The translations under genes were made by a program, and so were the position numbers. A DNA stretch of 58,958 bases, counting the filler, from Catajapyx aquilonaris (taxonomy: Eukaryota): NCBI GenBank assembly GCA_000934665.2. It is 2 parts of 2 records of this genome, joined end to end, with 100 filler letters (N's around TTAATTAATTAA, not from the genome) between each part and the next. Parts side by side here need not be neighbours in the genome. Positions count along the whole stretch, not along the records: positions 29,572 to 58,958 come from KZ539223.1; 1 more part is not named here. One strand, given 5' to 3'. Numbering within the stretch: the stretch's first letter is position 1; each line of letters opens with the position of its first letter. Below are positions 12,073-58,881 of this stretch, piece by piece. The notes beneath the pieces were generated by a model. It had not been told where the DNA came from. It saw only the letters and a list, made by a program, of their open reading frames with translations, and did not search any database.

Positions 12073-14619
12073 TGAAGCATTGTGATCGGCATTTCTGTAA
12101 TCGTGATTAAGTTAATTGCACAGCTGTTATCTCGGCCGTTTCTCATCCGAATTACTGTATCGACGGCAAGCCAGAAATGTGCGTGATAAGATTACACCGT
12201 ACTCTATTACACGAAATTTTTTAAAAGTATTTACAAGTATCGCCGTATATTCCCGCCAGAAAGCGGGCTGGGTCCTTTTCTATAAAACTGACTAAAACAA
12301 TACTTTTAAAAATTTTAGTGTAATAGAGCACAATGTAATCTTATCACGCACATTTCTGGCTTGCCGTCGATACATTCGCGAAGTAATTCGGATTATAAAC
12401 AGCCGAGATAAGAGGTGTGCAATTAACTTAATTATGATTACAGAAATGGTGATCTCAATGTTTCAAATATATCATTAGATAGACAAAGGTGTGCACTATC
12501 CAGGGTTCACAGGTGAATTTTTTTGGCATCCTGAAAGTGTCATAAAAATTCACTTTGCGGTGTAACGTCAGCAACTAGTCAAAAAATGACACTTTTCAGC
12601 CTTCTTTTTACGATAAAAAATTAGAGACGGACGATAGGAAAGCAACTTGCATATATGTAACGTGGATTTAAACAAGCTTTCTAACGATACATACCATTAT
12701 TTTTTTGGATAATTTGCCTGGGAGTTGTTTAGAGTCAAACACAGGGCTCTATATTAAATAAACGAATAGTTGACAGTTTTCAACTTTGTCTGGACAATTT
12801 CATCATATGGGCAAAATAAGTTTACATATTATGACTCATTGAAAAGGCTGCTATTTTTGTTGCATGGTCCGTTTATCTCTCTTCAGCATTTATTCACATA
12901 TGCTTTTATTTTGTAGATCGAGTAAGAAGCTTAGCTGTAATCACCTTTTCATGATTATCTCAGTTTTAAAATGTTGTCCTTTAGGACTGTTTGCTCAGAT
13001 GGTTCACACTGATCACTTGTTGGAAATGCCTTGAGTGGGACCAACACACTTGAATTAATTGAAACATTTACAGGGTCGAGTACAACAGTGTTCAAGGCTG
13101 TCTTTTATTTATAGTGGTTTAAACATATATGCTGGAAGTTAGACGAGTGTATGTGGGGTGGGGGGGAAGAGTTGGCAAGAGGGCATATTCAGGAATATTG
13201 GTGAAGTTTGGAAAAAGCTGTTAACAATGATGCCTGCTGTCATGAGGTTCTGTCAGATTAATTGTGACGCTGATTTTGCATTCATAGTTGGTTGCTGATT
13301 AGAATTGCAAGAAGCTTATAATGGTAGGTGCCATTATTATCTGGTTAGTTAGCTGCAGCTATACTGGAAAGCTATATGTAAAAAATAGTATTATTTACTG
13401 ACATTAAAAGGTGAAAGCTGTGGTAGAAACTGGCCAGGTACAGAAATGTTTGAGACATTACACATATAGAGTGGTTTCTACTCATGATGTCATTTTTGCC
13501 ACACATTATTACACAATATGATGGAAGTACAAGAAATGAATGTACCTTTCATTTGATGATTGCATTGTTGGTATTCTGCATAATCCCCTTTGGACCAGTA
13601 ATGCATGCATTCGAACATTTTGGCCCTTAGTTGTGTGAAAGACCTGCATCAAAATGTGTGGTTTTGTAATAATCCCCCTTGCTCTTTTATCATGTTTGCT
13701 GTACCATGTGCATTAATTTTATTGTGCAAAAATACGGAAGCATTTTATTACGTTATGCTGCAGATTGTGGTCCACTCAGAAAGAGCCGATGTTTAATTAT
13801 GATCATATTGTTTCAGGGAACGGTTCCGGATTTGCCAAACTTTGGAAACATCTGGAAAACTGAAGATCTCTCCAGAACTGGTGTGTATGAGTGCTTTTGA
13901 AGAACCAGAGTATTAATGTTGGCTGTTCAGATGCAAAATGTCCTGGAACAGGACTAGAAGCCAGTATCCACACAATAGTTTTTTTTGTCAGAAAAGCCAA
14001 CCATGTATGTCCACATTTCTCTTAAGCTTAAGAGAATCATGGGAAGAGTAGAAAATTTTCTTCTTGGTCAGGTCCCTCTTCTGAGGAGGTCAGAGGCAAA
14101 ATAGGGAGGGGGGAGGCTTGTTGTGCAGGAAACATGGATGTATGCCAACAAGCTTCTTGCATGATGTGTAACCCCACCTTCCCCAGAGGTAATGTAAAGA
14201 AGGACTTCCGTTTTGCCTGTGGTGTTGTTTCATGAATTTTATGCTACACACACACACACACACACCCACTCTTGTCTTGACTAAGGCGTGGGGACGGACA
14301 TTGATCACTTTTCACTGCGAGTGTAAACTGATCTAACCTAACCTAACCTGATCTAACCTAACCTAACCTAACCTAACCTACCCTACCTAACCTACCCTAC
14401 CCTAAGTAACCTAGGCTGAGAAAAATGGACTTTTGTGAAACCCTACAAATGAAAATAGTGGGGACATGTCCCCACTAATTTACACATGTCCCCACTGTAA
14501 TGGTACACTTCGCGTGTGTGAGACTGTGGGGACCGACAAATGTCCCCACAATTGGAACTGGTCCCCACAGCTACAGTAAAACCACAGACTTCCGTCCCCA
14601 GACCTTAGTCAAGACCTGA

Positions 14620-35124: not shown

Positions 35125-35979
35125 TGGGTTGATAGGGGCCTGTTTTGGCCCTTGCTTAGTAGTTGACCCTCCTTTCTTGATTTTGGAAGGTCCTGGTCTT
35201 AGGGCTGTTGGCTAGGTTTTTATCCTTTTTGTGGGGTCAAGGATGAGGGACTGATATGAAGATTTTGAGTTTTTCTTCAATGGACGTTTTAATTTGTTTA
35301 ATAAGGGTACGGAGACTTTGATGGTCGTTTTTTTGGAGGTTTGTTCAAAATTAAATAAACCCGGGGTACGCCGAATCAGATCAATTAAAGAATACTACAG
35401 TTCATTTCAATGTCTCTATTTGTCCTCATCACAGCTGACAACCAAACGCAGCACCTGACATGACACGTTTCACCCTACAGGGCTCGTCAGAGGTGCATGA
35501 CTGTAACATTGAAAGCTGGTCCCTCTGCTGCTTTTAAAACGGATGGAGGTTCCGCTGACACTGCTGCTCCTTGATCAGATCCTGATCGTGGCGGTGTTCC
35601 TGGTACTGCGTCATCAGGTTGCAGTGTGACTGGGATTTCAACTGCTTTGGTTCGAGTGTTGCCTATATATGCTGTGTATAGGTCTGCCAAAGCCTTTTTG
35701 CGAGTTATAGCGCGAAGGATGCGTTCTCGCACTTTCTTCCCTGCTCTCCTTCTTCTCTTCTGGAGCAGGGATGGATGGGAGAATGGGGGATGGTTGGTAG
35801 GGTCCATTGGGTCTGGTGTTGTTTATGTAATGCGGTTTTAAGAATTGGAGGTAGGCTTAAGATGTGTCTTAGCCGCTTTGGTTTGGAGATATAGGGGTGG
35901 TGTGGTTTCTCAGGTTGGGTAATGGGTGTTTTTGGTGTGGTTTTGAGGGTGGGTGTGGGGATTGTGACATGGGGGAGGA

Positions 35980-38464: not shown

Positions 38465-39149
38465 TCAGTAAAGTGACGGTGGGCGACAAATGGTAGTGAA
38501 ATACTAAGGTCACACATCCCCACGCAAAGCACCTTCCCCCTCTCGACAAATGAAAAGCTCCTCTGAGAATGAAAACAGACAGTGAAAACAGAGGAGTCCG
38601 TGGTGGAGAGTTACAAAATGCATGGATCATGGTTGGTCGTACGAACGCGACAAAAGTCGCAACACAAAACACATCAAGAATTTTCTTGAGAATACTTAGT
38701 TCGTATGACAGAGGTTGGGGACGGCCCATTTCTTCGGCCGTTGGCACAAAACGTAAAGTTATACAAAAACAATATATCCGGGCAAAGGTATAGACACAAC
38801 AGGTGGACGTCGATAATCGGTGGTCGTCCAAACACTCACTGCACATTGGGCGTCTTCCCTTTTCCGTCTCACATGCATTCCAAGGCTTCCGGTTGTCGAC
38901 TAGTTCCGACGAGCAGTGTTTCCGTCCGAGCTGATCGCGATGACTCCCCCGGGTGGGTCGGTGTCCGATTGGGCATGGTACAGCACATCAGATGATGAAC
39001 CGCCACCTCCTCGGGTTGTTGGACGTCCGTCAAAAAGGCCAACGTAACGGGGTGTATGCCCCCTCCGACGACGGCGCTGACGGGGTGTGTCCCTCAGGGC
39101 CACGACGAGCGGGGGCGTCAACACAAACGGCAGGATGGGAGTTCCGAAA

Positions 39150-39415
39150 TATCCACACGGGGTGCGGTCGCTCATCGGCGCACAACCCACCACACACATC
39201 CGGTTGAGGTCGATGAGGCAGGGGTTCCCCATCAGAAAGTCGTTGCCGATGATCACCGGTAGAACTGTTGTCTCCAAAATGAGGAACATATGCGTTATGG
39301 TGGATGTACCCCACAGGATAGGAAGGCATATAGTTCCCAAAGGCCGCGCCACATGGCCATCCAACATCACTCCTCGAGGTAGGGCAGTGCGGGTAATGGG
39401 GGGCCGTTCAGCGTC
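39150..39415 (-). pseudogene. LTR-retrotransposon aspartic protease C-terminal half
   Basis: PLGTICLPI...FLILE..LPVIIGNDFL...IDL. Confidence 0.65.
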
Positions 39416-39419
39416 GGAG

Positions 39420-40170
39420 AGGACCTCCCGCTTCCTTTTCTCTTTCTTGACCAGACCGAAACTCCTGTCGCACGGCAGGAAAGAGTGGCCGGGTTCTGGG
39501 AATCTCTGCACCACCTTTTCCAGGATACCTAACTTTACGAGCAAGAACAGATACTCTACCATAACTCGGTTCTTGTTCTGTGCCGAACAGTTATCTGAAA
39601 AAATGTACACAGTCTTCACACCAGGGCTGAGATTGTGTTCCACATAATACTGCACAAGACTGACCACCTCATTTTGACCCTTTCGTCCAACTGTTTCATC
39701 ATGCATAAAAAAATGGCTTTTTCCAGTCTTTGCTGGTGATATTGTTTGCAAGTGGCTTGTAATCCGCTCCAACCGGCTGGTTGTAACACCATGAAGTGCT
39801 GCGAATGCTTTCTTGCAGACGACATTTTCCTGGGTTCCTTCCCTGATCTGCAAAGACACATACAAAATAATAGTGCGCGCTGTTACAAGGTCACATAGTT
39901 GTACGCTAGGCCAGATGAATATAAGGGAAACCATACTTATGTATAATTTTGTGACCCACCTTGTACAAACATGAGTGTTGGCGCTGCTTCCCATTGCCTG
40001 TTTTTGGTCTCCGACGTTGTATGGATTTCTCACTCTTATGCACCCTGCTAGGTATGTGTCTTGCTTCTCTTTATCTGCGATTCCATTGAAAGAATGCAGC
40101 AATCTTTCCCTCTGGTCAGGGTCAAGGGATTCAAAGCACTTGTACTTGCATGAGCAGTCCTTTTCCCAGT
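39420..40170 (-). pseudogene. Sola1-like transposase fragment (internally deleted)
   Basis: QDTYLAGCI, VCKKAFAALHGV, DETVGRKGQNEV, FSDNCSAQNKN and GHSFLPCDRSFG. Confidence 0.8.
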
Positions 40171-40883
40171 GACCACTTCATTTGTTTCTTAGTCAAGCGG
40201 CCGTTAATTCTTTGCCACTGAAACAAGGGTACAATCATATTCAAGTCGGTTTATGGTGTCACCAGTGACCGACTAAGTTGATTCACGTTGTGTCGTAGTT
40301 GGGCTGCAGCAGTAGGGTCTGTGACCTGCTGCATCTGATCGTCCAGTTGTTGGCGTAGTTGTACGATGCCGTCGACATGAGCATTGTGTGGTCCATGTTA
40401 GGCTGGAATGCCGCATCAAGGCTTCGCCTGTTCACATTGCTTTCCTTTCGAGAACACGTCACAATAAAACGGCACAAAGAAACAAGCGAGACCAGTCATT
40501 AATAAAGAGTCGTCTTACAGCAAGTTTCTATACCTACATACAAAGTTCCGGGAGACCTAAAAATTGTTTATGTGCTCTTTAAAAATCATATCTGACAATG
40601 AAATTTTGCATTATTTTAAGGTAAAAAAAGTGAATTATATGTTAAATTAAAGCGCCAGTATCAGAATGGGGGATGGGCGGGGGTTGCAAAGAGCCATTAT
40701 GTTGAGGCTGGTTCTGATGTAAGGGTGTGAAGGCATTGGCAGCTTCAACGTCTGACAAACCCCCACGACGTTCACCACGGCGAAGGTTCCGTCTGCCATT
40801 CCTTCCACAGGGGACGTACTGCGAGTAACCACTTCGAATCAGTAATGCAGTTCAATTTTCATACTTGCATTGCCAATTTTTGT

Positions 40884-40959
40884 TTGTAGCCCCTGTACGC
40901 CTAAACAGCTGTTTCGCCTTGGCAAGGCTCTTCAGAGGTGCTAACCTCAGGGACTGCAA
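40884..40959 (-). ncRNA. Minimal type I hammerhead ribozyme (HHR-A)
   Basis: On -: gcacct-CTGAAGA-gcctt gcc aaggc-GAAA-cagctg-TT-taggcgt. Palindromic ACAGCTGT stem III and an extended outer stem; stem I has one extra U. Confidence 0.7.
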
Positions 40960-41859
40960 CCCTGCCATACTCCACGGCTGCGGCAACCCGACGTAGGATT
41001 GTTGTTGAATATCTACAGCCCCATCTTGCATTGGATGAACGTGTATGGTTTGAGTATTCTGCTGCGGTGGTGATTGGACCACGCTGCGCTGTCCCAGATC
41101 AGTATACCCAGTTTGGTAATCAATGACATCTTGTTGTACTGGATGAACGGTTAAGTATGTTGCCTCCTCTTGCAATTTTGGTGTCGTATTACGTTGACCC
41201 CAATTGTACGGTCGATAACTCTGATTTTGTCTTACAGCACGACTTGGCGTTCCGGCCCCAGTCTTTATAATTTCCTCCTCTGGGCTGTTGCCATGTACGC
41301 TGGTATCGGCGTTGGGCCTGAGATTGTCCACTGGTACCTCCAGCTGGTGCACCCTGTGTGGTGCTGTGTGTCACGCCAATCGCCATGAATTACGCCTTTG
41401 CTCCATCAATTCGAAGTTACGTGTAGCTAATATGGTACCTCCTATTCAGTCGATTAGGCAGGTGTTCTCGCTTTGGGCGCCATTGCCTGTCAATGTATTC
41501 CTTAACTTTAAATGTGGAATACTCGCTCATACTTTGCTACAGCTGCAACATCCACCACTTTCTCCCACTCATGTGCCATGCTCTGTTTAATCCCATGAAA
41601 TATGTCGATATGCTGATTAAACAATAAGCCTGTCCAATCCATGCTGACATGACGAAACAATGCCTCACCAATTTTCCAGACTGCATTGCTCAGTTCGTGT
41701 AGGTTTGGGATCTACTGTCCGGCATGGGGCTCTGCTACGTACAGAGGTTGTAAGGCTGCTATCCTCCTCTCCATGTCGTCCTATTGATTACAATATAGGG
41801 CTCGGCGCTCTAACCTGAGAAGAGGGAGTTGACTGGCTACGCCCCCTTCTGCCCACCCA

Positions 41860-41940: not shown

Positions 41941-42489
41941 GTTAGTCCTGGAAGTATGACCTGTCCTAAATGTCACTTGAGCTTCAAATATTATTCACTT
42001 CTGGTAATGCAAGGAGGCCTTCATAATTAGCTCAGCTTTCCCAGTGGTTTTTTTAAAGTCACTGTATCTACCTTTCTTTCATAGATTGCTTCCTAAAAAT
42101 CATAAAAAATACATCTTCTGTCATGTTGCCAATTTATTCACAATTCATTGCCTAGAAGTATCATGCAAGAGCAAAATCAAATCAGAAATGACATATTATG
42201 TTGAGGATTTCATAGCGATTGCCTGACCATCTCTTCTTTATTCTCACAAGTTACTTATTAGATCTACAAGTCCTACGATGCATTTCGCTTCCTTTCTTGC
42301 TTGCTCTGAAGCAACCGCAAGTAGCACGTTGAAAAGCTGGTGCTTGGAGTATTGCGGTTGGTTGCTTCCTTCCTCGCTCTGAATCAGCTGTCAGGCAGGA
42401 CCAGCTGAAACAAACACAAGCGGCACGATGAAAATCTGGTGTGGATACCTGCCCGAAGCATTGCGTTTCCTTCCTTCCTCGCTCGGATT

Positions 42490-43240
42490 CAGCTTACCTC
42501 CAACAGTGAATACCAGTGGCTGTACTCGCTCCTCACATGCAACCTCTATGCTCCAGTCCTCTTCACGCATCCTATTTACATGCTCCACATACTTCCTCCA
42601 GTCTTCTGGCTTCACACAGGCGATAGCTTCCTCCCACACCGCCCTGGTGTTGGCCTCCCCAAAATTGCTCTGACATGCCACATGACCATTGTAATACCAC
42701 TTCAACTTGGACCATACATTCTCAATTGGATTATAATGGCAGTGGTAAGGGGGAAGCCGCACTATTTCATGGCCTTCCCTCGCCAGCAATTCATCGATCA
42801 CGTATTTCCGGTAGTGAGGCTTGTGGGGGACAGCCAAGGAGTACAGCTCTTTCTTCAGGTGATTACCAGGGGGCAGCAGGTTCTTCTCCAGCCACTTCCG
42901 GATCCTCTCCTTTCGCCACTGCTGGGTGGGCAACTCCTCTTCCTGCGTGGAATGGTAAGCAGCATTGTCCGTGACAATAAGGCATCTTGATTTTGGTAGG
43001 TTTGGGATGAGCTGCTCCTTAACCCACCGAAGGAAAGTGTGTCCATTCATGTCCCCGTGGTAATCACCTGTAGACCTGCTGGATTGAAAAATCAAGGATG
43101 CCCCTTTCACAAACCCCTTGGCTCCACAAGCATGCCGCTTGGTACATATCTGCAGCCCATCGTGTCCGTCGCCCTCTGCCACTTTTTCACAATATGACTC
43201 AGTTGCTGATGTCCAGTACACTTTGGAAGAGTCCACCTCC
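42490..43240 (-). pseudogene. IS630/Tc1-superfamily transposase fragment with long D-E spacing (Sailor-like, DD81E)
   Basis: GDYHGDMN, IVTDNAAYHS and RLPPYHCHYNPIENVW; I count 81 residues between the second D and the E. Confidence 0.8.
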
Positions 43241-43242
43241 AT

Positions 43243-44002
43243 TTGCCGGTCAGGTCCGGTGCCGGTTTCTTCAGGGGCGTGTCTTCATATGGCCTCAGGT
43301 GGTGGCCATCCTCCAGTATGTTGTCCTGAATTATTTGGAACAGCTGGGCTAATCCCGTTGCTATGAGCGGAGATGGATACTTCCTTCTGATTAATTGTAC
43401 GAGCGTCTCCAGGCCTGAGATTAGTGCACCTGTAGCAATGGCTATGAAAACATGGTCTGAGTGCAAGCTCTCACATGCTGTCACATAGGCCGTCATGGCC
43501 GTAGGTTTGGTATAATGTACAGTTTGTGTCTCTTGTGTCTAGAAATATGTGTGTATCCAAGAATGGTGCATGTGTTCTTCTGTCGTGTACCGTTGCTGTC
43601 AAGTGTTTGTTGTGTATTTTTTCTTGCAATTCCATCATTGTGTGTTCCGTGGTGACAAGGAGTATGTCATCTAAAAATCTCGTGTAAGTGTGTACTTGCG
43701 ACTCATTCTGACTCATGAAATTTACTTCTAATTCATTCAGAAAAATGCCAACCAGTATAGTGGTGAGCAACTAGACCCCATGGCCCCATGGCTATCCCTT
43801 TGCTTTGTCTATAAAGGTCTTGGCCAAACCAAAAATAGTTGGCTTCAAAGAACATGTCCAACAGCCTTTCCATAATGGATGGTGTAAAATACCTGGTTTC
43901 TTCGTGAGCTTGGTGCCAAAATGTGTATAACCTCATGACTGTGTCTTTCAGTAGCTGGCGTTCTATGTTAGGGCACATCGCATCAATGTCTATTGTAAAT
44001 AT
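43243..44002 (-). pseudogene. Penelope-like RT catalytic and thumb fragment, no GIY-YIG visible
   Basis: IDIDAMCPNI, NYFWF...YRQSKGIAMG, RFLDDI, PFLD and SLH...RKYPSPLI, with frameshifts. Confidence 0.8.
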
Positions 44003-44499
44003 CTACATAGTAAATTATCTACATTTGCACTTTGATCATCGGCGCCATGAATCATGTGGCATTTGTTCGCTGCGTCTGCTAACAATGTTTTCATGTGATT
44101 ATTTTCGCCAGCTAACTTTTGCAAATCATTGAGCAATGGAAAGTGATCTGTTATTTTTGACTGTCCGGGGATAGGCTTGAGCTTGCACAACTTACGCAAT
44201 CCCCGCTGTAGTCTTGAGTAGCGGTCATCTTGCCACTTTGATCTTTCTTCGGATTTTCCCATCACAGTTGATGCTGGCTCATTTCTGAAGGAATCTGGCT
44301 CGGAGGCACGGAAGATGGCACTTGAGGGACTGCTGCCTCCTGGACATCCCCCGCCAACCGAAAATTTGTAGGGACCAATGCAGGGACGTTGATCATTGAT
44401 GATCTGGGCTGGTTGAGGCTTATGTCTGGTTCTTTATCTTGGGCAAGATCTTGGGAGAATGGTGTTACACTGTTTGTATTTTCTGTTCTAGCTATTACA

Positions 44500-44960
44500 A
44501 TACACAAAATGGTGTGGTAAATACAGAGCAAACACACTGCACGTCCTTTTCGTTCTACACACTATACCACACTAAAAAGAACCAAAAAAAAGGGGCGTGG
44601 GAAGACCAAAACAGCTCGGTTCCCACTAACAAAAAAAAAGGAAACAGTTCACCTCCTTGCCACAAGGTGTCAGTAACGGGCAAACAAAAAGTAAGTGCGC
44701 CAAAAGCAAATGCGTGCCACCAGTAAACATACCGCCCACCAAAATTGACGTATTTTCCGAATAAGACATAAATGATATAAGAACATGCTCACATCTTATT
44801 GACTAGCAAAAGGCAAGAGGCAAATCTTGACCACAGGTCTTTTAAATGTAGAGTCTCGGCTTCGCACAGTAACTACGCGCTTCACCAGGCTTAGACCCTT
44901 GATGATCCAGAAACGCCGTCTTATAACGGAAAGGAGTAGCTGGGGCCGGCATGTAATAGG
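44500..44960 (-). mobile_element. BEL/Pao integrase remnants, PPT and start of the 3' LTR
   Basis: PQLLLSVIRRRFWIIKG is fused to VTVRS...FKRPVVKICLLP. PPT GGTGGGCGGTA is followed by TGT at 44729. Confidence 0.75.
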
Positions 44961-45039
44961 CGAAGATGCAGATACCGAATTCATCAGATCAACCAAATCC
45001 TTTTATATGCAAAAGTGTAATCAAAGTCAATTCTGAGTA

Positions 45040-46130
45040 ATTATGAGAACTGCATGAGAGTCGCTTCTGAACCTCTGCACCCGCAGTGGCATAAAATGCC
45101 AGACACTTGCGCCTCACTTCACTTGCTCCATCACATGGGAAGGTAGTCAGGAGCTTCTCGCATTCTGGACCAAGGTACACCGACTCGAGTGGCAGGAAGT
45201 CTGACGGATGCAACAGTGCACTGTCACTGGCACTCTTCAGGGCTGACCCACGCACAAATCTTTTGGCACAACTGCATAAACAGCTTCTGGGAGGCATCGG
45301 CCAGTTTGTGTACCAAGATCTTCCTACCAAGGAATAGGGCATTGAATGCGTTGGTGAAGTTCAGAGCGTACTTCAGGGGGGGTATATGCTTTATTGTAAT
45401 TGTTCTGTAGCTCCTGAAGGATGATTTCTGCTGACTTGAGCTTGCCCTCTTTCATGACGCTGGCACCATCACTTGCTACTCCAACTATGTTTGTCATTGG
45501 CACATCCTTTTCCTTCAACATTTCCGTGAAGGCAGTTAATATATCTTCTGCGGAGCATCTGCTGGGATCTAGTGGCATAAGATCGAGCAAATCAGTGCGC
45601 ACTCGCCCATTTTGTGGTGAGACATAACGTACCAACACACACAAGTATTTTTTCAAAGATATAGATCTGTTCTTTCGTCAATTAGGATTGAAAACTTTGC
45701 CTTCCTCACATTGTCACAAGTTTCCTCCTGTTCCACTTTCTCTAACAGATACGTGCATTTGCTTCGCTTCATTGACAAATCCTGTGCAATTTTTGAATCT
45801 GGAAATGCTGATTTGAGCACAGGGACCAAGAGTGGTCCACAACTTGTATAATGCAACATTGTGCTCNNNNNNNNNNNNNNNNNNNNNNNNNNNNNAACCC
45901 GATTTCAGCCTTTTTCACCTTGTCCCGATGTTGTTCCTCCTGCCTTGACTGCACACTAGTTGTCAAGAACCCACTAATTGAAGGACTGCTTTTCACAGCC
46001 CTGACTTTCACTTGGTGATTCTTCCCCAATGAATGTTTCTCTATTTCACTTTTCCCGTAGCAAATTGAGACACCACGGGCAGGACATTTACACTTTAATT
46101 TGTTGTCCGGATCAGGTTTAAGCCAGGCTT
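45040..46130 (-). pseudogene. hAT transposase fragment (ZNF862/ZBED-like)
   Basis: AFPDSKIA, FSILIDERTD, KYLCVLVRY and GVASDGASVM. Confidence 0.75.
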
Positions 46131-46199
46131 TGAACTTGCAATTGTTTCAAATGTTCTGCGAATAGTGACTTGTCGTTCTCTGACAGCTCTTCTCCAGTG

Positions 46200-46760
46200 G
46201 CACGAAGAAAATTTGAGAAATTAGGAAAGGTCTCCTCATATTTTCCATTCAGTATACGCTGACGCCACAACTCCCAACTCCCAACTTTTTCATCGTTGGT
46301 TCTATCTTGTCTTCAACTAAAAAGACGGTTACTTTTTCTCCTTGAAGACTTAAGTTCAGATGATTCACATGGACGAAGATATCTGATAAGTATGCTTACT
46401 TGACTAGCCAGGGAAAATCATTCAAACGATCGCTGAGATGAAATTGCTTATCCAAGAGAAATATTCTTATTTCGTCTTTCAATTCCCAGAATCGAGACAA
46501 CACTACTTCTGGACAGCCAGCGAACTTCACAGTGAAGCAAAAGTTGATGATATTCACTGTCCATTTCCTTGCAGAGCTGCCCAAAAAGTCTTGAATTCAG
46601 TGACTTGCTTTTTACGAAATTGACAATTTTCACTGATTCATTTAAAGTCTGCTTAAGCTCTTCAGGTATCTTCTTAGCCACTAGTTCTTCCCTGTGTAAG
46701 CAGCAATGGAACCATGTTGCCGACCCCGATTTCTTTTATTCGTGCTTGCAAGTCCAGTAA
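46200..46760 (-). pseudogene. hAT Buster/Charlie-type transposase fragment
   Basis: WFHCCLHREELVAK, LNSRLF, LLLHCEVRWLS and AYLSDIF. Confidence 0.85.
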
Positions 46761-46764
46761 GTCT

Positions 46765-48481
46765 GGATTAAATAGTCTGTATTTAACGAAATGCATCAAA
46801 GGTCTAAGAACAAACAGCAGTATATCATTAACCCTACAAGTAATAGACTTCATGCCCTGTATTATGGGTCGCATTGTGAGTTCTGACACATCCTTTTTAA
46901 TTTTATGCAATTTAGGCATAGTATACAACAGTGGTACCACATATTTCTGTCCATATGGATTTTCCTCCTTATCATACAGCACGTGTTTCTTACTTAAAAA
47001 CGTCTCCACATCCCTATTCCGTTTAAGCAGAGGTTTAATTTCGGGTAATATTTTAATCATGTCACCATGAATTCTTTCGAGTGTATTTTCAAACCACTCT
47101 TTGCATCCTAAAATATGTCCCATTCTAATATATGACCCAGAATAATAGTTTTTTCAATATACAGTTCCGAATCCATAATGGTTAGGCCGGGTTAGGCCCA
47201 CGTTTTTATCACCCATTTTAATAACGATTTCGTTTCCATTAAATTTCTCTAACCATCCCTCAGCCTCAATTTGAGCCTTGGGTTTTAGCAAGGGGCACCC
47301 TCGTAGGGCAGCATTTACCCATAATTGTTGCTTAATTTGGCCCATAATTTGTCGTTCAGGGTACTTAGGAGGAAATTTATCATATCCTCCGACCTTCTCA
47401 TTGAATAATTTATTTTTTTTACCCCCCTGGATATTTCCACGTGATTCAGGTTTCTGCTCACTTTGTCTGACAGCGTCTGCAACCCAATGATGCTCCAGAT
47501 GATTTAAGCAAGTGTTCAATTGTTCATAATTCACATAATTATGGTCAATATGTTTAACTCTTCTCTCCAAGTATTGCATAACTGTCGTAGGTATAAATAC
47601 GCTCGACAGATTTGTACTTGAAAAGTTTGCTAATGCAATATTCCTTTTCGGATGCAATTCCAGAGTTTCATTGGTATTCATGAGGTTGTCATAAATTTCC
47701 ATAATGTTTTTAATACCCAACAAATTACATAGTGTTAAATTTTGGTGTGAAATCATTTCAGCACCTGCCATTATCGTTTTATTTTCCAACTTTGGCCACT
47801 TTATCAGTTTTTTTGGGCCAGCCCATCCATATCTACAAGGCTGTATTCCTGCCATTTATTCAGAGAATGCACTTTATTTCCAGCTTTGAAAAATTTGTTA
47901 AACCCATTATCCCAACATAATTGCATCAAATGATCTACATCCCTTTTCCTGGGAACAGGTATATTGGCAACTCCACATTCCTGAATCAAGTGATTAAGTT
48001 TTCGATCCCTCTCTTGGCACAACAATTTTAATTTTTCCCCTGGCAACAGTTTTTCATCAACCCTCGACATAAGTCCATATCCTAGTTGTAAAGGATCCAG
48101 TTGTTTAAAAAATTGACCCAGTAATCTCTCACGTTTGTCACTTGCTGACTGAGACTGTCTTCCATCATCCCCTGCATCATCAACGTCCTCAGCCTCAGTC
48201 ACTGCTCCAGTGTTTCCATGGACCCTCGTCCCGGCTGCCATCTGTCCTGCTCCAGAAGCTTGAGTTGCGCCAGCTGTTCGTTGCACATCATCCATTGCGG
48301 GAATGGCCTCCACGACTTCCATCAGCTGACTGTCCACATTTAATGGATCTTCAAACTGTCCTGCCACTGAAGGAGCACCAGGTGCGTTGATACCGGAGTT
48401 GTCTCCACCCTCATTGTATTGGCCTCTCCCACCTCTCATTCCTCTTGGCATCGCCCTCCCTCTCCCTCCAGGTGATGTCAT
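46765..48481 (-). mobile_element. Penelope-like (Athena/Terminon-like) element copy 1: ORF1 (48481-47804), -1 frameshift, RT N-terminal half
   Basis: RGG-rich ORF1; IVIKMGDKNVG, LYTMPKLHK and MRPII PLE RT motifs; slippery site at 47807-47813. Confidence 0.8.
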
Positions 48482-49004
48482 CTGTCTCAGTAAGGATAGG
48501 TCTGGGATCTTTGTTCGAGTACAGGTTGTAATGGTGGATTACTGATGTTTTGAGGGTGAAGGGGTACTTGGTTGCCAGTAAACTGGACATTAGGTGGTGG
48601 TGGATTGTTTCCAAGTTGGGGATATTGATTAGGTGGGTTACTGGCAGGGCGGGGGCCTTGAGGATTATACTGGGGGTAGTTGGTTGCTCGATTGGTTTGG
48701 TCAGTCCTCTGCCTTCCACTTCAATTCATTTTTCACTAATTAATGATTAATTAGTGCTAATTAATTAATTTTGGGAGATAAGGAGTTGAATGGGACGGGT
48801 TAGGAGAAAATCGGCAGGTTGGTTTGGACTTAAAAAATGTTTGAAGAATTCTTGGTTGGACATGGTTTTGGAGGGGGGTTGGGACAACTGTCCTCTTTAG
48901 ATTTTAAGGCTTAAGGTGCTGTTTTGGTAAAAGGTCTGTTTGTTGACGGTAGGGCTTGGTACGTTAAGGTAGGGTACGTCGCAGTATGGGGGGTCGGTTC
49001 TTTT

Positions 49005-49035
49005 GGTAGGTTAGGTTAGGTTGGGTGAGGATAGG
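49005..49035 (+). repeat. Short degenerate (TTAGG)n tract
   Basis: GGTAGG TTAGG TTAGG TTGGG TGAGG ATAGG. Confidence 0.55.
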
Positions 49036-49060
49036 AAAAGTAAGGTAATGAGGTTATGCG

Positions 49061-49465
49061 TTAGGTCCTGGAGCGACCGGGTGGGAGGCACGTATGAATA
49101 TTTTCGAAGTGTTCCTTCCTTGGCGAGGGATGTTTACCACCCCGACCGGCGGCCACCTGCTTCCTCGTTGGTGGACCTCCTCCGCCCATCGTCTGACGAT
49201 CTGCGTCTTCTCTGCGGTACCGATCAATCTCCTCACGGACCCGTGTTTGCCCTTCCCTAGGGAGGCGGGAAAAGAGCTCCTCTCTACTCTTCCTTGTGCG
49301 GGCAAGCAACTCCCTTCTTTGCTTATACAGAATGGTGGTCATCTCCACACTCGCCACCCGCACAAATGCGTCCAGCTCGTTCCAATCTGTATTTGGCAGC
49401 AGATCCAGATTCGGGACATAGTGGTCTGGATGCAGGTGCAGCGTATGCACCGGGTCCCCAGCCAT
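49061..49465 (-). CDS. Helical, charged ORF of unknown function, probably a PLE accessory or N-terminal domain
   Basis: 134-aa open frame with a coiled-coil-like stretch, lying between a TTAGG tract and an HHR. Confidence 0.35.
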   Translation of the reverse strand: MAGDPVHTLHLHPDHYVPNLDLLPNTDWNELDAFVRVASVEMTTILYKQRRELLARTRKSREELFSRLPREGQTRVREEIDRYRREDADRQTMGGGGPPTRKQVAAGRGGKHPSPRKEHFENIHTCLPPGRSRT

Positions 49466-49600
49466 GAGGCTCCTGACCTCATCGTCAGGTTAAGTTATTA
49501 AATAATGCCCAGGGCACGGCAGGATGAAGTAAAATAATCAAGGCATCATTTGCTCAGGCGATATATATATTGTCCAACAAATGCTTGCAGTTGTCCTCCT

Positions 49601-49655
49601 TATCTAGCACCTTACGCGTTTCACCCTATAAGGGCTCATCAGAGATGCTTGGTAT
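49601..49655 (-). ncRNA. Minimal type I hammerhead ribozyme (HHR-B)
   Basis: On -: agcatct-CTGATGA-gccct tat agggt-GAAA-cgc-GTA-aggtgct. 7-bp stem I and palindromic ACGCGT stem III. Confidence 0.85.
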
Positions 49656-49987
49656 ACTTTAAGTATGAGAGGCAGGACACTGCAAGCATGCTACAACTGC
49701 CGACATCTTTGAGCAAGGTTAGGTTAGAAATTAAAAACAAGCCGGTTGGCTACCAGGCAGGTCCCGAAGCAAGGCCCGATCACAGGGGCGTACGCCTTTC
49801 TTCCGCCGTGCCAAGGCGTAGCGGGCTTGTGTGTACCGGACCGGTCCCTCTACCAGTCCGGGCCAGAGGTAATAAGAGGAATATGTTTGCCGGAAAGAAT
49901 AGACGCTAAGGCCAGATATACAGTTTTATGAGAGTTTATTGGTATATTTCCAAACACTTTTCAATAACAGATTTCCACACTAGAATT

Positions 49988-50043
49988 GGCCGGGTTCCGA
50001 CCGGTTTCGCTCTTGGCGAAGATACTCTTCAGGGGAAATGGCT
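49988..50043 (-). ncRNA. Minimal type I hammerhead ribozyme (HHR-C)
   Basis: On -: ttccc-CTGAAGA-gtatctt cgcc aagagc-GAAA-ccg-GTC-ggaa. Palindromic ACCGGT stem III. Confidence 0.75.
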
Positions 50044-50427
50044 TGATGTGTGGTACATAATTTTGCGTTTTTAGTAATACATTATAAGTTCCCGTAAGGC
50101 CACCGCGTGCACTCGGTTTCTTAGCCAGACAGGGGGACTTGGTTTTTATCTGGATATAATTTGTCTAGGCTTCCTCCTCATGTTGGTGAAGAATGGCTGC
50201 TCTTTCTTGTTGATTGGATTTCTCTGGCTACTTCAATGGTCGGTGTGGGAGAGGGGGGTAAGGGTATGGTTTGTTTTTTAACAACCCACGGAGGGGCGTG
50301 TGCGAGGCTCGGTGGTAGGGGGATTAACGGTACAAGTCAACGGGATTGGGATTGTAAAGGAGCGGACCAGGACTGGCCCATTTCGGAGAAGGTTGCGGCG
50401 GGGACAAGGGGGCAAGGTGAGACTCAA

Positions 50428-50817
50428 TTATAGGGTTAGGAATGCCGGGGGAGCAGGGGAAACTTTGGCGGTCGTATCAGCGTTCACCCGGTGTTGTTGG
50501 TCCCTCAGTCTAATATTGGCTGTTTGTTGGATAGCTTGGCGCTGATTGATTTGGCGCTGGAATTCCTCCATCCTTTCTTCCTGGGCAAAGTGGGCCCGGG
50601 CCAGCCTGGCCTGGCTAGCATCCTTGGCGGCCTGACCCTCTCGATGTTGGCGTCCGGCCCGGCAGCCACGTCGTCGCGGCTTCTTCCTAGGTTTGGGGAC
50701 GTCAGGCCTGGCGGTCGGGAGCGGAACCATCCGAGGTGTAGCTGGCAGACTTCTAGGCAGGAGCAGGTGCAGCGCCAAGTGTGGTTGATTTAGGCCACCC
50801 AAGTTCAGAGAGCCCAA
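50428..50817 (-). CDS. Basic, Gln-rich ORF of unknown function within the PLE chain
   Basis: 129-aa ORF (RKKPRRRGCRAGR, coiled-coil-like), co-oriented between HHR-C and HHR-D. Confidence 0.3.
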   Translation of the reverse strand: MGSLNLGGLNQPHLALHLLLPRSLPATPRMVPLPTARPDVPKPRKKPRRRGCRAGRQHREGQAAKDASQARLARAHFAQEERMEEFQRQINQRQAIQQTANIRLRDQQHRVNADTTAKVSPAPPAFLTL

Positions 50818-51085
50818 GATGGAGCTCGAAGAACTAACTCTCAGCCTCAGGTGGAAATTGGAGCTCGGTTTTGGGTGGAAGGGGGACCTCGAGCCGCAAA
50901 GTGCAATGCGTCCGAGGAGCCGGCTGCCTCTATAAGGCGCCTTGCTTTGGAGCAGGAAATTTTCCGCTCTGGATCAGCAAGGATGGATGACCTTCGAACT
51001 GCTGAATGGCCCAGTTCTAGGTATGTAATGAAAATAATAACTTCGGGATGCGCCAGAAAATAGTAATTAATTTTCACCAAACATG

Positions 51086-51150
51086 CCCTGCAGCTTACAT
51101 TGCCCGACGGCCGTTTCGCCTAAAAGGCTCATCAGGGGCCAGCTACAGGG
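51086..51150 (-). ncRNA. Minimal type I hammerhead ribozyme (HHR-D)
   Basis: On -: ccctgtagct g gccc-CTGATGA-gcct ttt aggc-GAAA-cggcc-GTC-gggc...agctgcaggg. Palindromic ACGGCCGT stem III. Confidence 0.88.
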
Positions 51151-51683
51151 TAGTACATGACTGCAACGAGGGCATTAGTACACCAAGAGACATTGTGACG
51201 AGGTAGCCTAGATCATTTGGGCCAGTTCAAAAGTTTTTTGCCTGACTGACTGTACGTTCATATTCGTTCGGAGTCTGAAGGTCTCTGAACCAAGACACAC
51301 CATGAATCCTATCAGCTGTATTAAAACAAGGTGAATAGTAATCAAAAGTGTCTTCCAATGGCCTTATCGCATCCATTTTGGAAATATCAGTCATGTGGTT
51401 CCTTTCTGCTTCTGTAAAATTAGCGACCCACCATGCTAATAGTATAAAAATATTCATGTGGCAACACTGGTTGGATATTGGTCCTTTTCCTCCCGTGAGA
51501 TCGCTCGAACCATAGCCACAAGGGCGAATATACCCTTTCGCCCTTTTTTCTCCTGACGGTGGCTGGATATTCGCCCGATGCACGTCTCGTCAGCTCGTGT
51601 TCTGTGCGAGATACCGTTTCGCCACTTTGGCATGACACGCCACTTCACCTAAATGTACAACATGGGGATGGATAATCGCCATT

Positions 51684-53024
51684 TTGAATAGTCGATGAGT
51701 AACGAAACCGATAAGGGGTCTAAGAACATACTGAAGCGCATCGTTAACTCTTCCAGTGTTAGAGGCGAACCCTTGAATAATGGGCCGAACTGATAATTCC
51801 GATAGGCTAGTTTTAATCTTATGTAGTTTGGGCATAGAATAAAGAGCTGGTACTATGTATTTCTGATTATAGGGATTCCTCTCATTTTTAAATTTTATGT
51901 GGCGTTTGTTCAAAAATATCTCGATCAATTTAGGTTTTTGAGTTTAAACGCAACCTGGACCATTTCAGAATGATCTTTCTCGACTGTATCAGTGAACCAC
52001 TCTGTGGTGCCTATTAAGTGACCAATCCTCTTATAAGAGCCACAGTTGAGATGTTCAATCGTTTTGGTCGCATAACAAGCTTCAGTCCATAATTGTCAGG
52101 CCTGCATTTTTTGTCTGCCATCTTTATGACTATGTCGCTACCGTTAAATATACGCAGCCAGGCTTCTGCTTCTATTTGAGAGGTTGATTTCAACGGTGGA
52201 GGCTTCCTAAGACAAGCATGGGTATAAATTTCGAGGCGAATATGACTCTCATAATGTGTTTCTCCGGCATTGAGGTTGGAAACTTCAGATATCCGCTGGC
52301 TTTTACTGAAAATATATATATTTTTTTTTCGTCGTTCCATATGAACCTTTTTCCCGCTTCTCGAGCTGGGCAATGGTATCGCACTACCAGTGATGTTCCA
52401 GGTATGCATCTATTTGTTCCGAGTTGGTGAATTCCCTATCTACATGTTTAATCCCTCTCTCAAGGTATTTCATTACTACTTCAGGTACCACTAGACTGGA
52501 AATATTTGAGCTAGAAAACTGTGTAGTGAATATCCGCCAATTGGCTTGATCTTAAGTTCATTTTGCTCCCATAAATGACTCCAGGATACATTCAATGGTG
52601 GGGACCCCCAATAAGTTGCATAATTTTATATTAGCATTAGAGACAAGTTGCATACAAGTGACTGAGTCCTGCCCTGCAATCTTTGGCCATTCAATCAGTT
52701 TTTTCTCCCGATACTTGATGGTAATGCAAGCTTTCGGATACTGTCATAATCCCACTCGTAGAGTTTTTTAACTGTATGGTTTCGATGATTTAGTAGGAAG
52801 TGGTTTTTCCATCCGGCATTCCAACATCTTAATATGATCTCATCTATTGAGTTCTCGAGCCGGTAATTCAAGCCTGGCGACTTCCATTTCCTGTATAAAG
52901 TGACTGTTTTTTCTGTTTCGCTCGTCAATTATTACCGAGAATTTTTCAGACTGTAGATTACACTTCTTCATTTTCATACCCCAGCAGTTGGCTAGTGTAC
53001 ATATGGTCCATAAGAACTTGTCCT
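51684..53024 (-). mobile_element. Penelope-like element copy 2 (diverged, decayed): ORF1 C-terminus, -1 frameshift, RT N-terminal half
   Basis: Collinear peptide similarity to copy 1: KKLIEWPK, LCNLLG, QIEAEAWL..FNG.DIVIKMADK, NPYNQKYIVP.LYSMPKLHKIK and RPIIQG. Confidence 0.8.
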
Positions 53025-53343
53025 TTGTGGTGTGACCTGGTAGACCCACTAGGTTGTGACGAACCTGCATCTACTCACCTGGTCCGTCGCCCGGTGTCGC
53101 TCAGTCTGGGTCCTTCAATGATAACACACCATTTTGAATACACTACTTTATTGGCACCATCTTACATCTCATTCTCCCGTCTCCCTTCACCGTTGCCAGG
53201 CCTTCCGGCCCACGCCACATGGTTTTCACCGTTGCCATACTCTTGCCACGTTGCCATGCTCTTGCCACGTTGCCATGCCCCCAAACGTGGCAATTCCCCC
53301 CCCCCCCNNNNNNNNNNNNNNNNNNNNNNNNNNNNNNNNNNNC

Positions 53344-54870
53344 ACCGAAAACAATTTCCCGGCCGCGTTTATATATTGAGGGGGATTGGTTTTTGAGGTT
53401 GGCCATCAGCCTTGTGATAGGCAGTGGTAAACAAAAGGCCAAATACCAAGGCGGAGATGATTCCGGGACTAGGTCCCGATAATGAACATATCGGGTTGAG
53501 CGAGTTAGTGCCAGGTGACTAGCACTTAAAATACGTTCCTCATAAACTTGAATGCCCGCACTCAATGAGAGTTCCAGTAATTCCAAGTCATCACAGCCCA
53601 CTTCCGATAACTTTCGGTATACCCTACTGTACCAGTTCAGGCGTGGGGATGAACCTGCCGCCTGGTTTTTGGAGCTAAGGTATGCCAGTTTCTGGAGTCG
53701 GGAGGTAAGAAGGTTGGTCAGCTTTATTAGTTGTTTGCCTATCAATCTCAGGGCTCTTCCAGAAAGTGGTCTAATGCCTAGTTCCAGCCTTAGAAAATAA
53801 TTTGCCGTGTTGGATGGGAGCTGGAGAAACCTCTTCAAGAAATAATTTTGAACCTGATCAAAGATCTGTAAGTGCGCAATTCCCCAGACCTGGGCTCCGT
53901 ATAGAATTACGGGAGCAATTTGGGCGTCAAACAGCCTAAGTGCTACCTGAACGTCACGGACTTTCAGGCGTAGCATTGTATTCCACAGGCTATTGATTGC
54001 CACTTTGGCCTTCTTTTTAAGACATTCCGCCGCCAACGTAAAGTTTCCCGTAGAAAAAAAAACGGTATACCAGGATATGTATATGTGGAGGTTCAGTTAA
54101 GCGGCACAGTGTCCCAAAAGAAAGTACATTTAGGCCGGCAACCGGGCCTTTTAAAATACATCACATTTGTTTTCTTTAGGTTCAAACGCAGGCCATTCAA
54201 GAGAAAGTAATCCCTCGAACAATTTAAGTTTTTCTGAAGATAGGCTTGGCTGTTACATAACAAAATTATGTCATAAGCATAGGCTAAGGTGGTAAAGTCC
54301 GGAGTATTCGGCTCCAAATTTACTCCCGGCGAACCATTTTCGCCGATGTACCTTTCGAGGTCCGAGAGGAAGATGTTAAAAAGTACCGGGCTCAAAGGCT
54401 CACCTTGCGGCAAACCAACCGGGACCCGAATAACTACTTTCGGATCACAATCATCTACAATTCTGAATTTTCTATGATAATCTTGCAGCAACATCACAAA
54501 GCTCCGACTCATCCCCAAAGTTAATAGTTTCGAAAAAAGCAACTGGTGAGAGACCGAGTCAAGCGCTTTTGATAGGTCAATAAAGACGGCAAAAAGCCCC
54601 CCTCTTGGCTTCGATATATACCTTTGAACCAAACAGTTTAAAGAGGAGGTTGTCAACACACCCTCTTCCTGGGCGAAAAGCAGCCTGTGTGTCTGAGAAG
54701 ATTTCATGTTTATTAGCCCAACATAGTAATCGACCAGTGACTATAGAAGAAAAGCGTTTTACTACATTGTTCACCAGAGCGATGGGACGATAATTTCCTG
54801 GTTCCGTTGGGTCACCCGCTTTAAAGACTGGAGTAACCCTCGCACGGGCCCAAACACTGGGTATCTCATG
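53344..54870 (-). pseudogene. Non-LTR retrotransposon (LINE, RTEX/L2-like) RT fragment
   Basis: NYRPIAL, QAAFRPGRGCVD, FIDLSKALDSV, GLPQGEPLSPVLFN, LAYAYD and ILYGAQVWG. Confidence 0.85.
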
Positions 54871-57856: not shown

Positions 57857-58690
57857 TTAATCAGGTCCGTGCAAATTACAATTGAGTTGTCGATATCTAC
57901 GTCTCTTCCTCCTCACCACAGGCAGGCTTTGTGCAAGCTGGTTTCGCAGAATCTTAGCAGCTTTGCATGCAGCTGGATCTTCCTCTCCATGATCTTCAAG
58001 ATACTCATCGGGGTCATGCAGGTCTTCCACGGCACCCTCATCAACGTCATCTGGGAGATCATATGAGCCACAAAGGTTGTGCAGGACACATGAAGCCATT
58101 GTAATCTTGCAGATTCTCTTTATGCAGCCAACTTCTACAAAATAAAGTCCGCGGAATCGCTGCTTAAGGAGGCCAAACGTGTGCTCGATTCGAACTCGCT
58201 GCGAACTGTGCTGATAGTTGTAATTCTTCTTCCATTCTGGAAGGCTCCCAGTGTCTCGGTATGGGGTGAGAAGGTATGAAGTGAGTGAGTAGGCGCCATC
58301 ACCAAGTAGATAGTATCCACCTGCAAGAAATTAAATTGTCAAAAATGCGCTTCTAGTCACCTGGGTTGTGGAACTGACCTTCGCGCTAAGTCCTGGAATA
58401 TCCTTACGAACGAAAGAGTTTTTGAACACCTTTGCGTCATATGTACGGCCCGGGTATCCAATGAACACATCTCGGAATCTCTTCTGATCATCGCATATTC
58501 CCTGCAGGATTATGGCATGGAATTTCTTCCTATTGTAATACGAGCTAGGTGACTCGGATGGTGTTCTGATGGGATGAAGCTCCCATCTATGGCTCCAACC
58601 ACTCTCGAGGCCTAATTCTGCAGGAAACCCCTCTGCTATTCGGGGCTTCTAATCTTTTGTTGGCAGCTTTATGACTTCTGCTGAAATGCT
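57857..58690 (-). pseudogene. PIF/Harbinger (HARBI1-like) transposase fragment with a retained intron
   Basis: VGAIDGS, YYNRKKFHAIILQGICD, GYPGRTYDAKVF, LLGDGAY, RVRIEHTFGLLKQRFR and CVLHNLC. Confidence 0.9.
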
Positions 58691-58820: not shown

Positions 58821-58881
58821 GTTGGTTAGGTTAGGTTAGGTTAGGGTTAGGGTTAGGTTAGGGTTAGGTTAGGTTAGGTTA
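58821..58881 (+). repeat. Arthropod telomeric-type repeat (TTAGG)n with TTAGGG variants
   Basis: About 11 units read directly from the sequence. Confidence 0.9.

Follow-up and report, generated by a model that had tools for sequence, protein, structure and literature searches.

In a 58,958-nucleotide (nt) stretch of the Catajapyx aquilonaris genome (assembly GCA_000934665.2; positions 29,572 to 58,958 come from KZ539223.1), here called the window, two diverged copies of a Penelope-like element (PLE) carry the same junction between an upstream open reading frame (ORF1) and a reverse transcriptase (RT). The junction consists of the heptamer A_AAA_AAC followed immediately by a stop codon in the ORF1 frame, and the RT continues in the -1 frame. 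A third lineage, represented by the metagenome contig L001, has the same arrangement, and we compared these three lineages (copy 1, copy 2, and L001) throughout. We propose, with a probability that we put at about 0.72, that the junction directs a programmed -1 ribosomal frameshift yielding an ORF1-RT fusion in an endonuclease-less Penelope-like lineage.

The junction in the two window copies

Both copies lie on the minus strand, and re-reading of this strand reproduced both junctions as they had been given in a preliminary description of the window, including the coordinates, the A_AAA_AAC heptamer, and the TGA. In copy 1, the junction reads GCC CAA AAA AAC TGA, with the A-run at 47814-47808, the C at 47807, and the TGA at 47806-47804, so that the heptamer occupies 47813-47807. 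In copy 2, where it reads GGG AGA AAA AAC TGA, the heptamer spans 52704-52698 and the TGA 52697-52695. The parts of the two copies around the junction are as follows.

47804-48538, minus strand: C-terminal part of copy 1 ORF1, 244 codons from stop to stop, ending GLAQKN and then TGA (ORF list)
47807-47813, minus strand: slippery heptamer A_AAA_AAC of copy 1, in the ORF1 frame (sequence read)
46677-47855, minus strand: RT frame of copy 1, -1 to ORF1, with KKLIKWPK, IVIKMGDKN, and RT motifs as far as RPIIQG
52695-52959, minus strand: C-terminal part of copy 2 ORF1, split over two frames by one decay frameshift and ending SSIGRKN and then TGA (translation and alignments)
52698-52704, minus strand: slippery heptamer A_AAA_AAC of copy 2 (sequence read)
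51686-52704, minus strand: RT frame of copy 2, starting KKLIEWPK and ending after RPIIQG...RLF

Three-frame translation showed that the frame-0 product of copy 1 ends in ...GLAQKN (in a longer read, SLVDMDGLAQKN) and that of copy 2 in ...LALPSSIGRKN, each directly before the stop. The -1 frame reads ...GPKKLIKWPKLENK in copy 1 (longer read, ...WAGPKKLIKWPKLENK...) and ...YREKKLIEWPKIAGQ in copy 2 (longer read, ...KYREKKLIEWPKIAGQ...). Past the heptamer, the -1 frame is therefore KKLIKWPK in copy 1 and KKLIEWPK in copy 2, as the preliminary description had stated, while an upstream stop closes this frame 14 codons (copy 1) or 13 codons (copy 2) ahead of KK. The high divergence claimed for the surrounding DNA was also borne out. 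When 2.2 kilobases (kb) of copy 1 were compared with the window by BLASTN, only 195 nt of copy 2 aligned, at 68% identity. In the RT frame, TBLASTN of copy 1 against copy 2 gave 37% identity over 137 amino acids and 62.5% over 80 amino acids, and copy 2 shares 38% identity with copy 1 across the first 133 RT-frame codons.

An apparently intact relative carries the same junction

As a query we used P0001, the 393-amino-acid N-terminal part of the copy 1 RT, with its single stop read through as X. Among 1.84 billion representative proteins it matched one, P0002 (E value of 2 × 10−11), in which Pfam RVT_1 was recognized at an E value of 8.6 × 10−11. P0002 is encoded by L001, a contig with a repeat unit of 4,845 nt that contains ORF1 and RT only and whose repeat copies are 100% identical across 1,500 nt. 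L001 is apparently intact. Its ORF1 has 602 uninterrupted codons (2330-4138) and ends in ...IITSKN before the stop, and its RT frame (ORF2) has 728 uninterrupted codons (4111-6297), is -1 to ORF1, and opens with FSHHHIKKLITWD.

The L001 junction is ACA TCA AAA AAC TAA, with KKLITW in the -1 frame. ORF1 and RT overlap by 27 nt in L001 and by 27 to 45 nt across the lineages. The -1 frame of L001 opens 6 codons ahead of KK and contains no ATG from the upstream stop to the conserved N-terminal region. Over its whole length, L001 ORF1 contains three in-frame heptamers of the X_XXY_YYZ type, and only A_AAA_AAC falls in the overlap. The preliminary description had held that intact relatives with ORF1 and RT in a single frame would speak against recoding; in L001, the two lie in different frames.

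Homology switches frame at the heptamer

The A_AAA_AAC heptamer with its immediate stop is common to copy 1, copy 2, and L001 (3/3 lineages). We determined the best local BLOSUM62 score in all nine frame pairs for every pairing of the three sequences. In the 150 nt upstream of the junction, frame 0/0 won in all three pairs, with scores of 56, 50, and 34 against at most 26 for the other eight frame pairs. In the 390 nt downstream, frame -1/-1 won in all three, with scores of 248, 125, and 112 against at most 58 for the others. The ORF1 products of L001 and copy 1 are homologous over their final ~150 residues (BLASTP against L001 ORF1 residues 439-576, E value of 2 × 10−8, 27% identity over 151 amino acids), and copy 2 aligns over the final ~85. 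The three-way alignment of the RT frame begins exactly at KKLI, inside the heptamer, and continues through NLSS..IP..V..YLE...KH, LE..W, and IVIK..DK(N/K) into the RT motifs; by TBLASTN, the copy 1 RT frame matches L001 ORF2 residues 60-357 with an E value of 3 × 10−28.

In a codon-guided alignment, three-way nucleotide identity is 26% overall. At 8 nt, AAAAAACT at the junction is the longest run identical in all three sequences within the 483 aligned columns, and the next is 6 nt long. Identity by codon position followed the order 2 > 1 ≥ 3 in five of six comparisons (e.g., 0.46/0.71/0.37 for positions 1, 2, and 3), and in the sixth, between ORF1 of copies 1 and 2 over 44 codons, positions 1 and 3 were near equal (0.45 and 0.43); these alignments were guided by amino acids, which favors positions 1 and 2. 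Similarity at the protein level persists both before and after the junction, each time in the proper frame, which argues that the three lineages have diverged as coding sequence with the frame change in place. The claim that the junction is a functional recoding signal and not decay thus gained from L001, with its identical heptamer, stop, and frame change, and from the frame switch seen in 3/3 pairs.

The frame break could alternatively have been inherited without any function, from one ancient mutation in a dead ancestor, with the A-run acting as a mutational hotspot. Both window copies are dead, the A-run of copy 1 varies between A7 and A9 (see below), and A-rich linkers in PLEs are described in a passage of PMC8557442 as prone to frameshift mutations. 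However, the defects of copies 1 and 2 differ throughout, and the junction is the sole break common to both. Moreover, the three sequences are 26 to 40% identical at the amino acid level, and such divergence with similarity kept in the proper frame requires long evolution as working elements, while L001 combines two uninterrupted long ORFs with a 100% identical repeat copy. We consider an inherited, nonfunctional break very improbable.

Ribosomal frameshifting as the favored mechanism

In the mechanism that we favor, the mRNA of the element would carry two overlapping frames, the RT frame having no start codon of its own. Most ribosomes would halt at the UGA or UAA directly after A_AAA_AAC and release the ORF1 protein, whereas a minority would slip one base back on the heptamer and read ...K-N-L-I-x-W... 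into the RT. One message would in this way give much ORF1 protein and little ORF1-RT fusion, like gag and gag-pol. A_AAA_AAC is a slippery site of astroviruses and several retroviruses, and an X_XXY_YYZ heptamer in the upstream frame is located within the ORF overlap in 3/3 lineages. That the slippage would be ribosomal, and how efficient it would be, we infer.

The RT could instead be translated separately, through initiation that is internal or at a non-AUG codon, or through reinitiation after termination at the ORF1 stop, in which case two proteins would be made and the heptamer would be incidental. Such a scheme would fit copy 1, whose -1 frame opens with an ATG 14 codons ahead of KK, and it would fit the ORF1 stop, which adjoins the start of the RT-frame homology in 3/3 lineages. 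Nevertheless, this ATG is missing from copy 2 and L001, the codon past KK is CTG, CTG, and CTA, which provides no conserved near-cognate start, and the RT-frame homology starts within the heptamer itself. Separate translation of the RT therefore appears quite improbable to us.

The main rival to ribosomal frameshifting is transcriptional slippage, in which the polymerase would add one A on the A6-A7 run and thereby place the RT in frame, with ...K-K-L-I... in the product. What is conserved is indeed a homopolymeric A-run, of 7, 6, and 6 residues in copy 1, copy 2, and L001, respectively; a downstream stimulatory structure was not found, and in copy 1 the run is unstable in DNA (A7 or A9). On the other hand, a run of 6 to 7 A residues is on the short side for cellular RNA polymerase II to slip on appreciably. 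Slippage of this kind needs neither the C after the run nor the stop behind it, and yet both are conserved in 3/3 lineages. The phase of the run is also exactly that of X_XXY_YYZ, a phase that is, however, passed on together with the protein context. We judge transcriptional slippage to be unlikely.

Several observations weigh against a programmed ribosomal frameshift. The preliminary description had proposed folding the downstream sequence for a hairpin or pseudoknot, and none conserved across copy 1, copy 2, and L001 was found by single folds, a crude pseudoknot scan, or RNAalifold, two of the three folded sequences being decayed. In the 67 nt past the heptamer, only copy 1 folds better than its shuffles (z of -3.1, 2/200 as good), the values for copy 2 and L001 being +1.06 and -0.96. 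In the scan for H-type pseudoknots, crude as it is, 132, 169, and 164 of 300 shuffles did as well as the real sequences, and the RNAalifold consensus amounted to -1.35 kcal/mol with 4 pairs. Furthermore, when contigs from four sequencing runs of one sample (X1 to X4) were compared with the window loci, the copy 1 run was A7 in X1 and X2 and A9, with two extra bases, in X3 and X4; an A9 run would break the -1 relation in copy 1. The adjacent stop is weak evidence, because the Leu-Ile codons of the -1 frame partly force it: by our own estimate, they produce a stop behind the heptamer about half the time, and its conservation would arise by chance in about 1 in 8 cases. Finally, the comparison comprises three lineages only, two of them 5 kb apart in one window, and the two L001 repeat copies, being 100% identical, are not independent and count as one observation.

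Other single-base differences suggest that X1/X2 and X3/X4 represent two haplotypes. A difference between A7 and A9 in a dead copy is as expected of neutral homopolymer instability; the run is mutable nonetheless. No length variant of the copy 2 heptamer was listed in any of the four runs. As for the concern of the preliminary description that the A-run length might vary at random among copies, the heptamer is always in phase across the lineages, but copy 1 does vary within the sample. The stop abutting the heptamer may be part of the signal.

The RT is related to those of Penelope-like elements

By TBLASTN, L001 ORF2 matched L016, a canonical Penelope-like locus, with an E value of 6.6 × 10−14, while P0002 did not match the RT of the window that is of the non-LTR type (LTR, long terminal repeat; TBLASTN E value of 1.1). 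L016 has a single ORF with ADKG, YGLPKLHK, RYVDD, and a GIY-YIG endonuclease with two Cys residues between the motifs. An N-terminal DKG-type motif is present upstream of the RT core as IVIKMGDKN in copy 1, IVIKMADKK in copy 2, and IVIKPSDKN in L001, and aligns with IIITKADKGN of the canonical loci. These sequence comparisons identify the RT as a specific relative of Penelope-like RTs.

A GIY-YIG endonuclease was not found in L001 or in the 59-kb window, either by TBLASTN with the L016 region or with the regular expression GIY...C..C...YIG, the 3′ parts of the window copies being missing. The expression found L016 as a positive control; Pfam missed the GIY-YIG domain of L016, and TBLASTN and the motif were therefore used.

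The lineage is hardly sampled. None of the 380 "near" and 2,465 "longer" candidates from a 5.8-billion protein set scored against copy 1 ORF1, and the protein search with L001 ORF1 returned a single match, a fragment of L001 ORF1 itself (P0003). Neither ORF1 nor the N-terminal part of the RT had a Pfam match above the cut-off. A scan of metagenome contigs with the conserved RT block (query A2) yielded 17 loci, among which L001 was the only member of the lineage; the other 16 are canonical Penelope-like elements with 23 to 39% identity, and TBLASTN found an ORF1 homologue in none of them. Junction peptide patterns (query A3) gave 261 pattern matches in the metagenome contigs and zero relatives, and queries A2 and A6 each failed to find a relative in the viral and genome contigs. 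The contigs of the four runs contained no further junction copy at a likeness of at least 80%. With one match in 1.84 billion representatives and no ORF1 homologue beyond L001, the earlier view of a poorly known lineage stands.

An AlphaFold2 model of L001 ORF1 had a mean pLDDT of 48.9 and was too poor for a fold search. With this low confidence, it predicts helices including one of 64 residues, with helical N- and C-terminal parts around a middle that is disordered.

About 150 nt past the RT stop, L001 has a hammerhead-like motif (1601-1634) that reads CUGAAGAG...CGAAAC...GUC with pairable flanks, as seen by inspection and with a regular expression; Rfam gave no match here at an E value of ≤1. 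In addition, AACCTAACCT at 2322-2333, 6 nt before the ORF1 ATG, contains CCTAA twice. Motif and repeat would both suit an element pairing with chromosome ends of the TTAGG type, the unit boundaries not being defined. Neither this repeat nor the CCTAA runs at 49011-49030 and 58826-58880 of the window adjoin a defined element end. One hammerhead-like motif of the window had the following sub-threshold match in Rfam.

51100-51141, minus strand, between the copies: type I hammerhead-like motif (Rfam Hammerhead_1, 28.9 bits against a gathering score of 34, E value of 0.0013 to 0.005; motif scan)

Five well-formed hammerhead-like motifs (CUGAnGAG...CGAAAC/UGAAAC) are present on the minus strand of the window, at 51106-51135, 49999-50032, 49613-49642, 40904-40935, and 35462-35490. 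The regular expression gave nine matches on the minus strand, which is the strand of the Penelope-like copies, and two on the plus strand; Rfam lists just two of these places, 51100-51141 with 28.9 bits and 49613-49651 with 20.7 bits (E value of 9), and scores both below threshold.

According to PMC8557442, canonical endonuclease-containing (EN+) PLEs have a single ORF, in line with what the preliminary description had said of typical Penelope elements. According to the legend to Fig. 1 of that paper, a frameshift with a pseudoknot can set ORF1 apart; coiled-coil ORF1s are also mentioned there. The ORF-frameshift-RT layout that the preliminary description had ascribed to Athena/Terminon elements is thus found in the legend, but the clade is not named there. 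Because a frameshift between ORF1 and RT has already been drawn for some PLEs, we do not present the architecture as new. Our literature search returned nothing coupling Penelope-like elements with slippery sites or ribosomal frameshifting. Endonuclease-less elements can also arise within EN+ clades, such as a Neptune-like element of the kuruma shrimp (PMC8557442), and PMC5537684 describes Athena as a telomeric element that lacks an endonuclease and carries short telomeric repeats at its 3′ end. Look-alikes in the Atlas were RT clusters mostly from Rotifera (score of 0.97), which is a lead only. The preliminary label "Terminon-like" was partly upheld, by the failure to find an endonuclease in L001 and by the hammerhead-like motif, and partly not, as the unit is a 4,845-nt one with two ORFs and a pseudoknot was not found. 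We therefore describe the element as an ORF1-frameshift-RT Penelope-like element of a hardly sampled lineage, membership of which in Athena/Terminon is not established.

State and surroundings of the window copies

Apart from the junction regions, the following parts of the lineage were located in the window.

43555-43996, minus strand: continuation of the copy 1 RT core, containing RFLDDILL (TBLASTN, P0002 residues 175-325 and L001 ORF2 residues 372-522)
49064-49489, minus strand: ORF1 N-terminal-domain fragment (TBLASTN alignment, L001 ORF1 residues 101-251, E value of 5 × 10−5)
41429-41813, minus strand: third ORF1 N-domain fragment, broken, of the same lineage (TBLASTN, L001 ORF1 residues 95-226)

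The RT of copy 1 is split by an unrelated insert of ~2.7 kb at ~44000-46700, and the 3′ part of the copy is lost beyond ~43500, where it adjoins a DDE_3 transposase remnant. None of three minus-strand ORFs tested from the insert had a Pfam match; they may be hAT/ZBED-type transposase remnants, which they resemble. The RT frame of copy 1 has one in-frame TGA near 47154. The context of this stop (~47151-47159, minus strand) is TAT TGA AAA AAC TAT, a second A_AAA_AAC-like run in copy 1, which is probably a coincidence because the alignment with L001 carries on in the same frame through it.

The fragment at 49064-49489 probably represents the front of copy 1 ORF1, separated by a decayed middle from the part at 47804-48538, with which it has a common frame. 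Three CCTAA units at 49011-49030 were considered as the 5′ end of copy 1 and rejected, since the ORF1 N-domain homologue is located further upstream, in the same frame as the C-terminal part. In the decayed middle of copy 1 ORF1, summed contig depth at 48987-49203 was ~1,500 to 2,400 in all four runs, and one contig per run omits 177 nt (48827 to 49005); the region (48987-49203 and 48828-49004) is a repeat or structural variant. The RT frame of copy 2 has three stops as well as frame changes within its first 400 nt, and the element ends near 51686. The fragment at 41429-41813 shares 41% identity with L001 ORF1 over 73 amino acids (E value of 1.5 × 10−16) and has stops.

The RT stretch at 46765-~47100 matched contigs of very high word depth (~1,530 in X1 and ~1,900 in X3, against ~31 for the locus) at ~87% identity (26 differences in 204 nt). 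An abundant related Penelope-like family may be present in the same genome, depth not being copy number.

Telomere-type repeats occur as ~11 CCTAA units with CCCTAA variants at 58826-58880 (minus strand), as ~3 units at 49011-49030 (minus strand), and as a run on the plus strand at 14337-14376. Such interstitial repeats suggest a subtelomere-like or formerly terminal region. Remnants of other mobile elements in the window are listed below.

38903-40177, minus strand: DUF7869 protein remnant
42394-43284, minus strand: DDE_3 (Tc1/mariner-type) transposase remnant
53143-54740, minus strand: non-LTR type RVT_1 reverse transcriptase remnant
57860-58330, minus strand: DDE_Tnp_4 (Harbinger-type) transposase remnant

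Implications and comparison with known systems

Penelope-like elements are the least understood class of retrotransposons and the closest relatives of telomerase. A lineage whose RT depends on a frameshift would look broken to annotation pipelines, and such elements would be under-counted because the pipelines call them broken. The junction is a short and testable recoding signal that, if confirmed, would constitute a compact eukaryotic -1 site without an evident downstream structure. The ORF1 of no known family and the nearby telomere-type repeats would both be relevant to the question of how arthropod retroelements that lack an endonuclease reach DNA ends. Retroelements commonly frameshift from an upstream ORF into the polymerase, however, and the architecture has already been sketched in the literature.

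In its widest form, the proposal would be that of a deep, barely sampled clade of endonuclease-less PLEs, seen in an arthropod genome and one environmental contig, with an ORF1 of ~600 codons of no known family. An ORF1-RT fusion would be the sole form in which its RT is made, by way of a -1 frameshift at the heptamer and adjacent stop that needs no RNA structure, and the elements would reside at or near TTAGG-type telomeres as the arthropod counterpart of rotifer Athena. Taken as a whole, this picture is tentative and, in our opinion, rather doubtful.

With the gag-pol genes of retroviruses and LTR elements and with ORF1a/1b of astroviruses, the present lineage would share a structural or accessory upstream ORF that is joined to a polymerase through -1 slippage at an X_XXY_YYZ heptamer, and A_AAA_AAC is the very heptamer used in several of these systems. 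In those systems a hairpin or pseudoknot follows the site within a few bases, and the frame-0 stop is usually located further on. In contrast, no conserved structure was found here, and the stop abuts the heptamer in 3/3 lineages.

The EN+ elements (Penelope/Poseidon, Neptune, and Nematis, with L016 as our example) resemble the lineage in RT sequence, in their hammerhead ribozymes, of which the lineage has candidate motifs, and in a DK(G/N) motif upstream of (P)KLHK and RPI(V/I). They differ in that L016 combines the RT with a C-terminal GIY-YIG in a single ORF, whereas here ORF1 and a frameshift precede the RT and an endonuclease was not found. Terminons are giant multi-ORF elements, unlike the 4.8-kb two-ORF unit described here, and the host genome of the window is of the arthropod type, not that of a rotifer or fungus.

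The likeness to the endonuclease-less elements Athena and Coprina lies in the PLE-related RT, in the endonuclease not found in L001, and in the hammerhead-like motifs. The layout drawn in Fig. 1 of Craig et al. 2021 (PMC8557442) likewise has ORF1 upstream of the RT with a frameshift between them, although the pseudoknot of that layout was not found after the site here. The coiled-coil ORF1s of the same legend recall the 64-residue helix of L001 ORF1, which comes from a low-confidence model. Among arthropods, the lineage can be likened, by description only, to MjPLE01, the endonuclease-less, Neptune-like PLE that PMC8557442 mentions from the kuruma shrimp, citing Koyama et al. (2013). Finally, short CCTAA-type repeats near element ends recall Athena.

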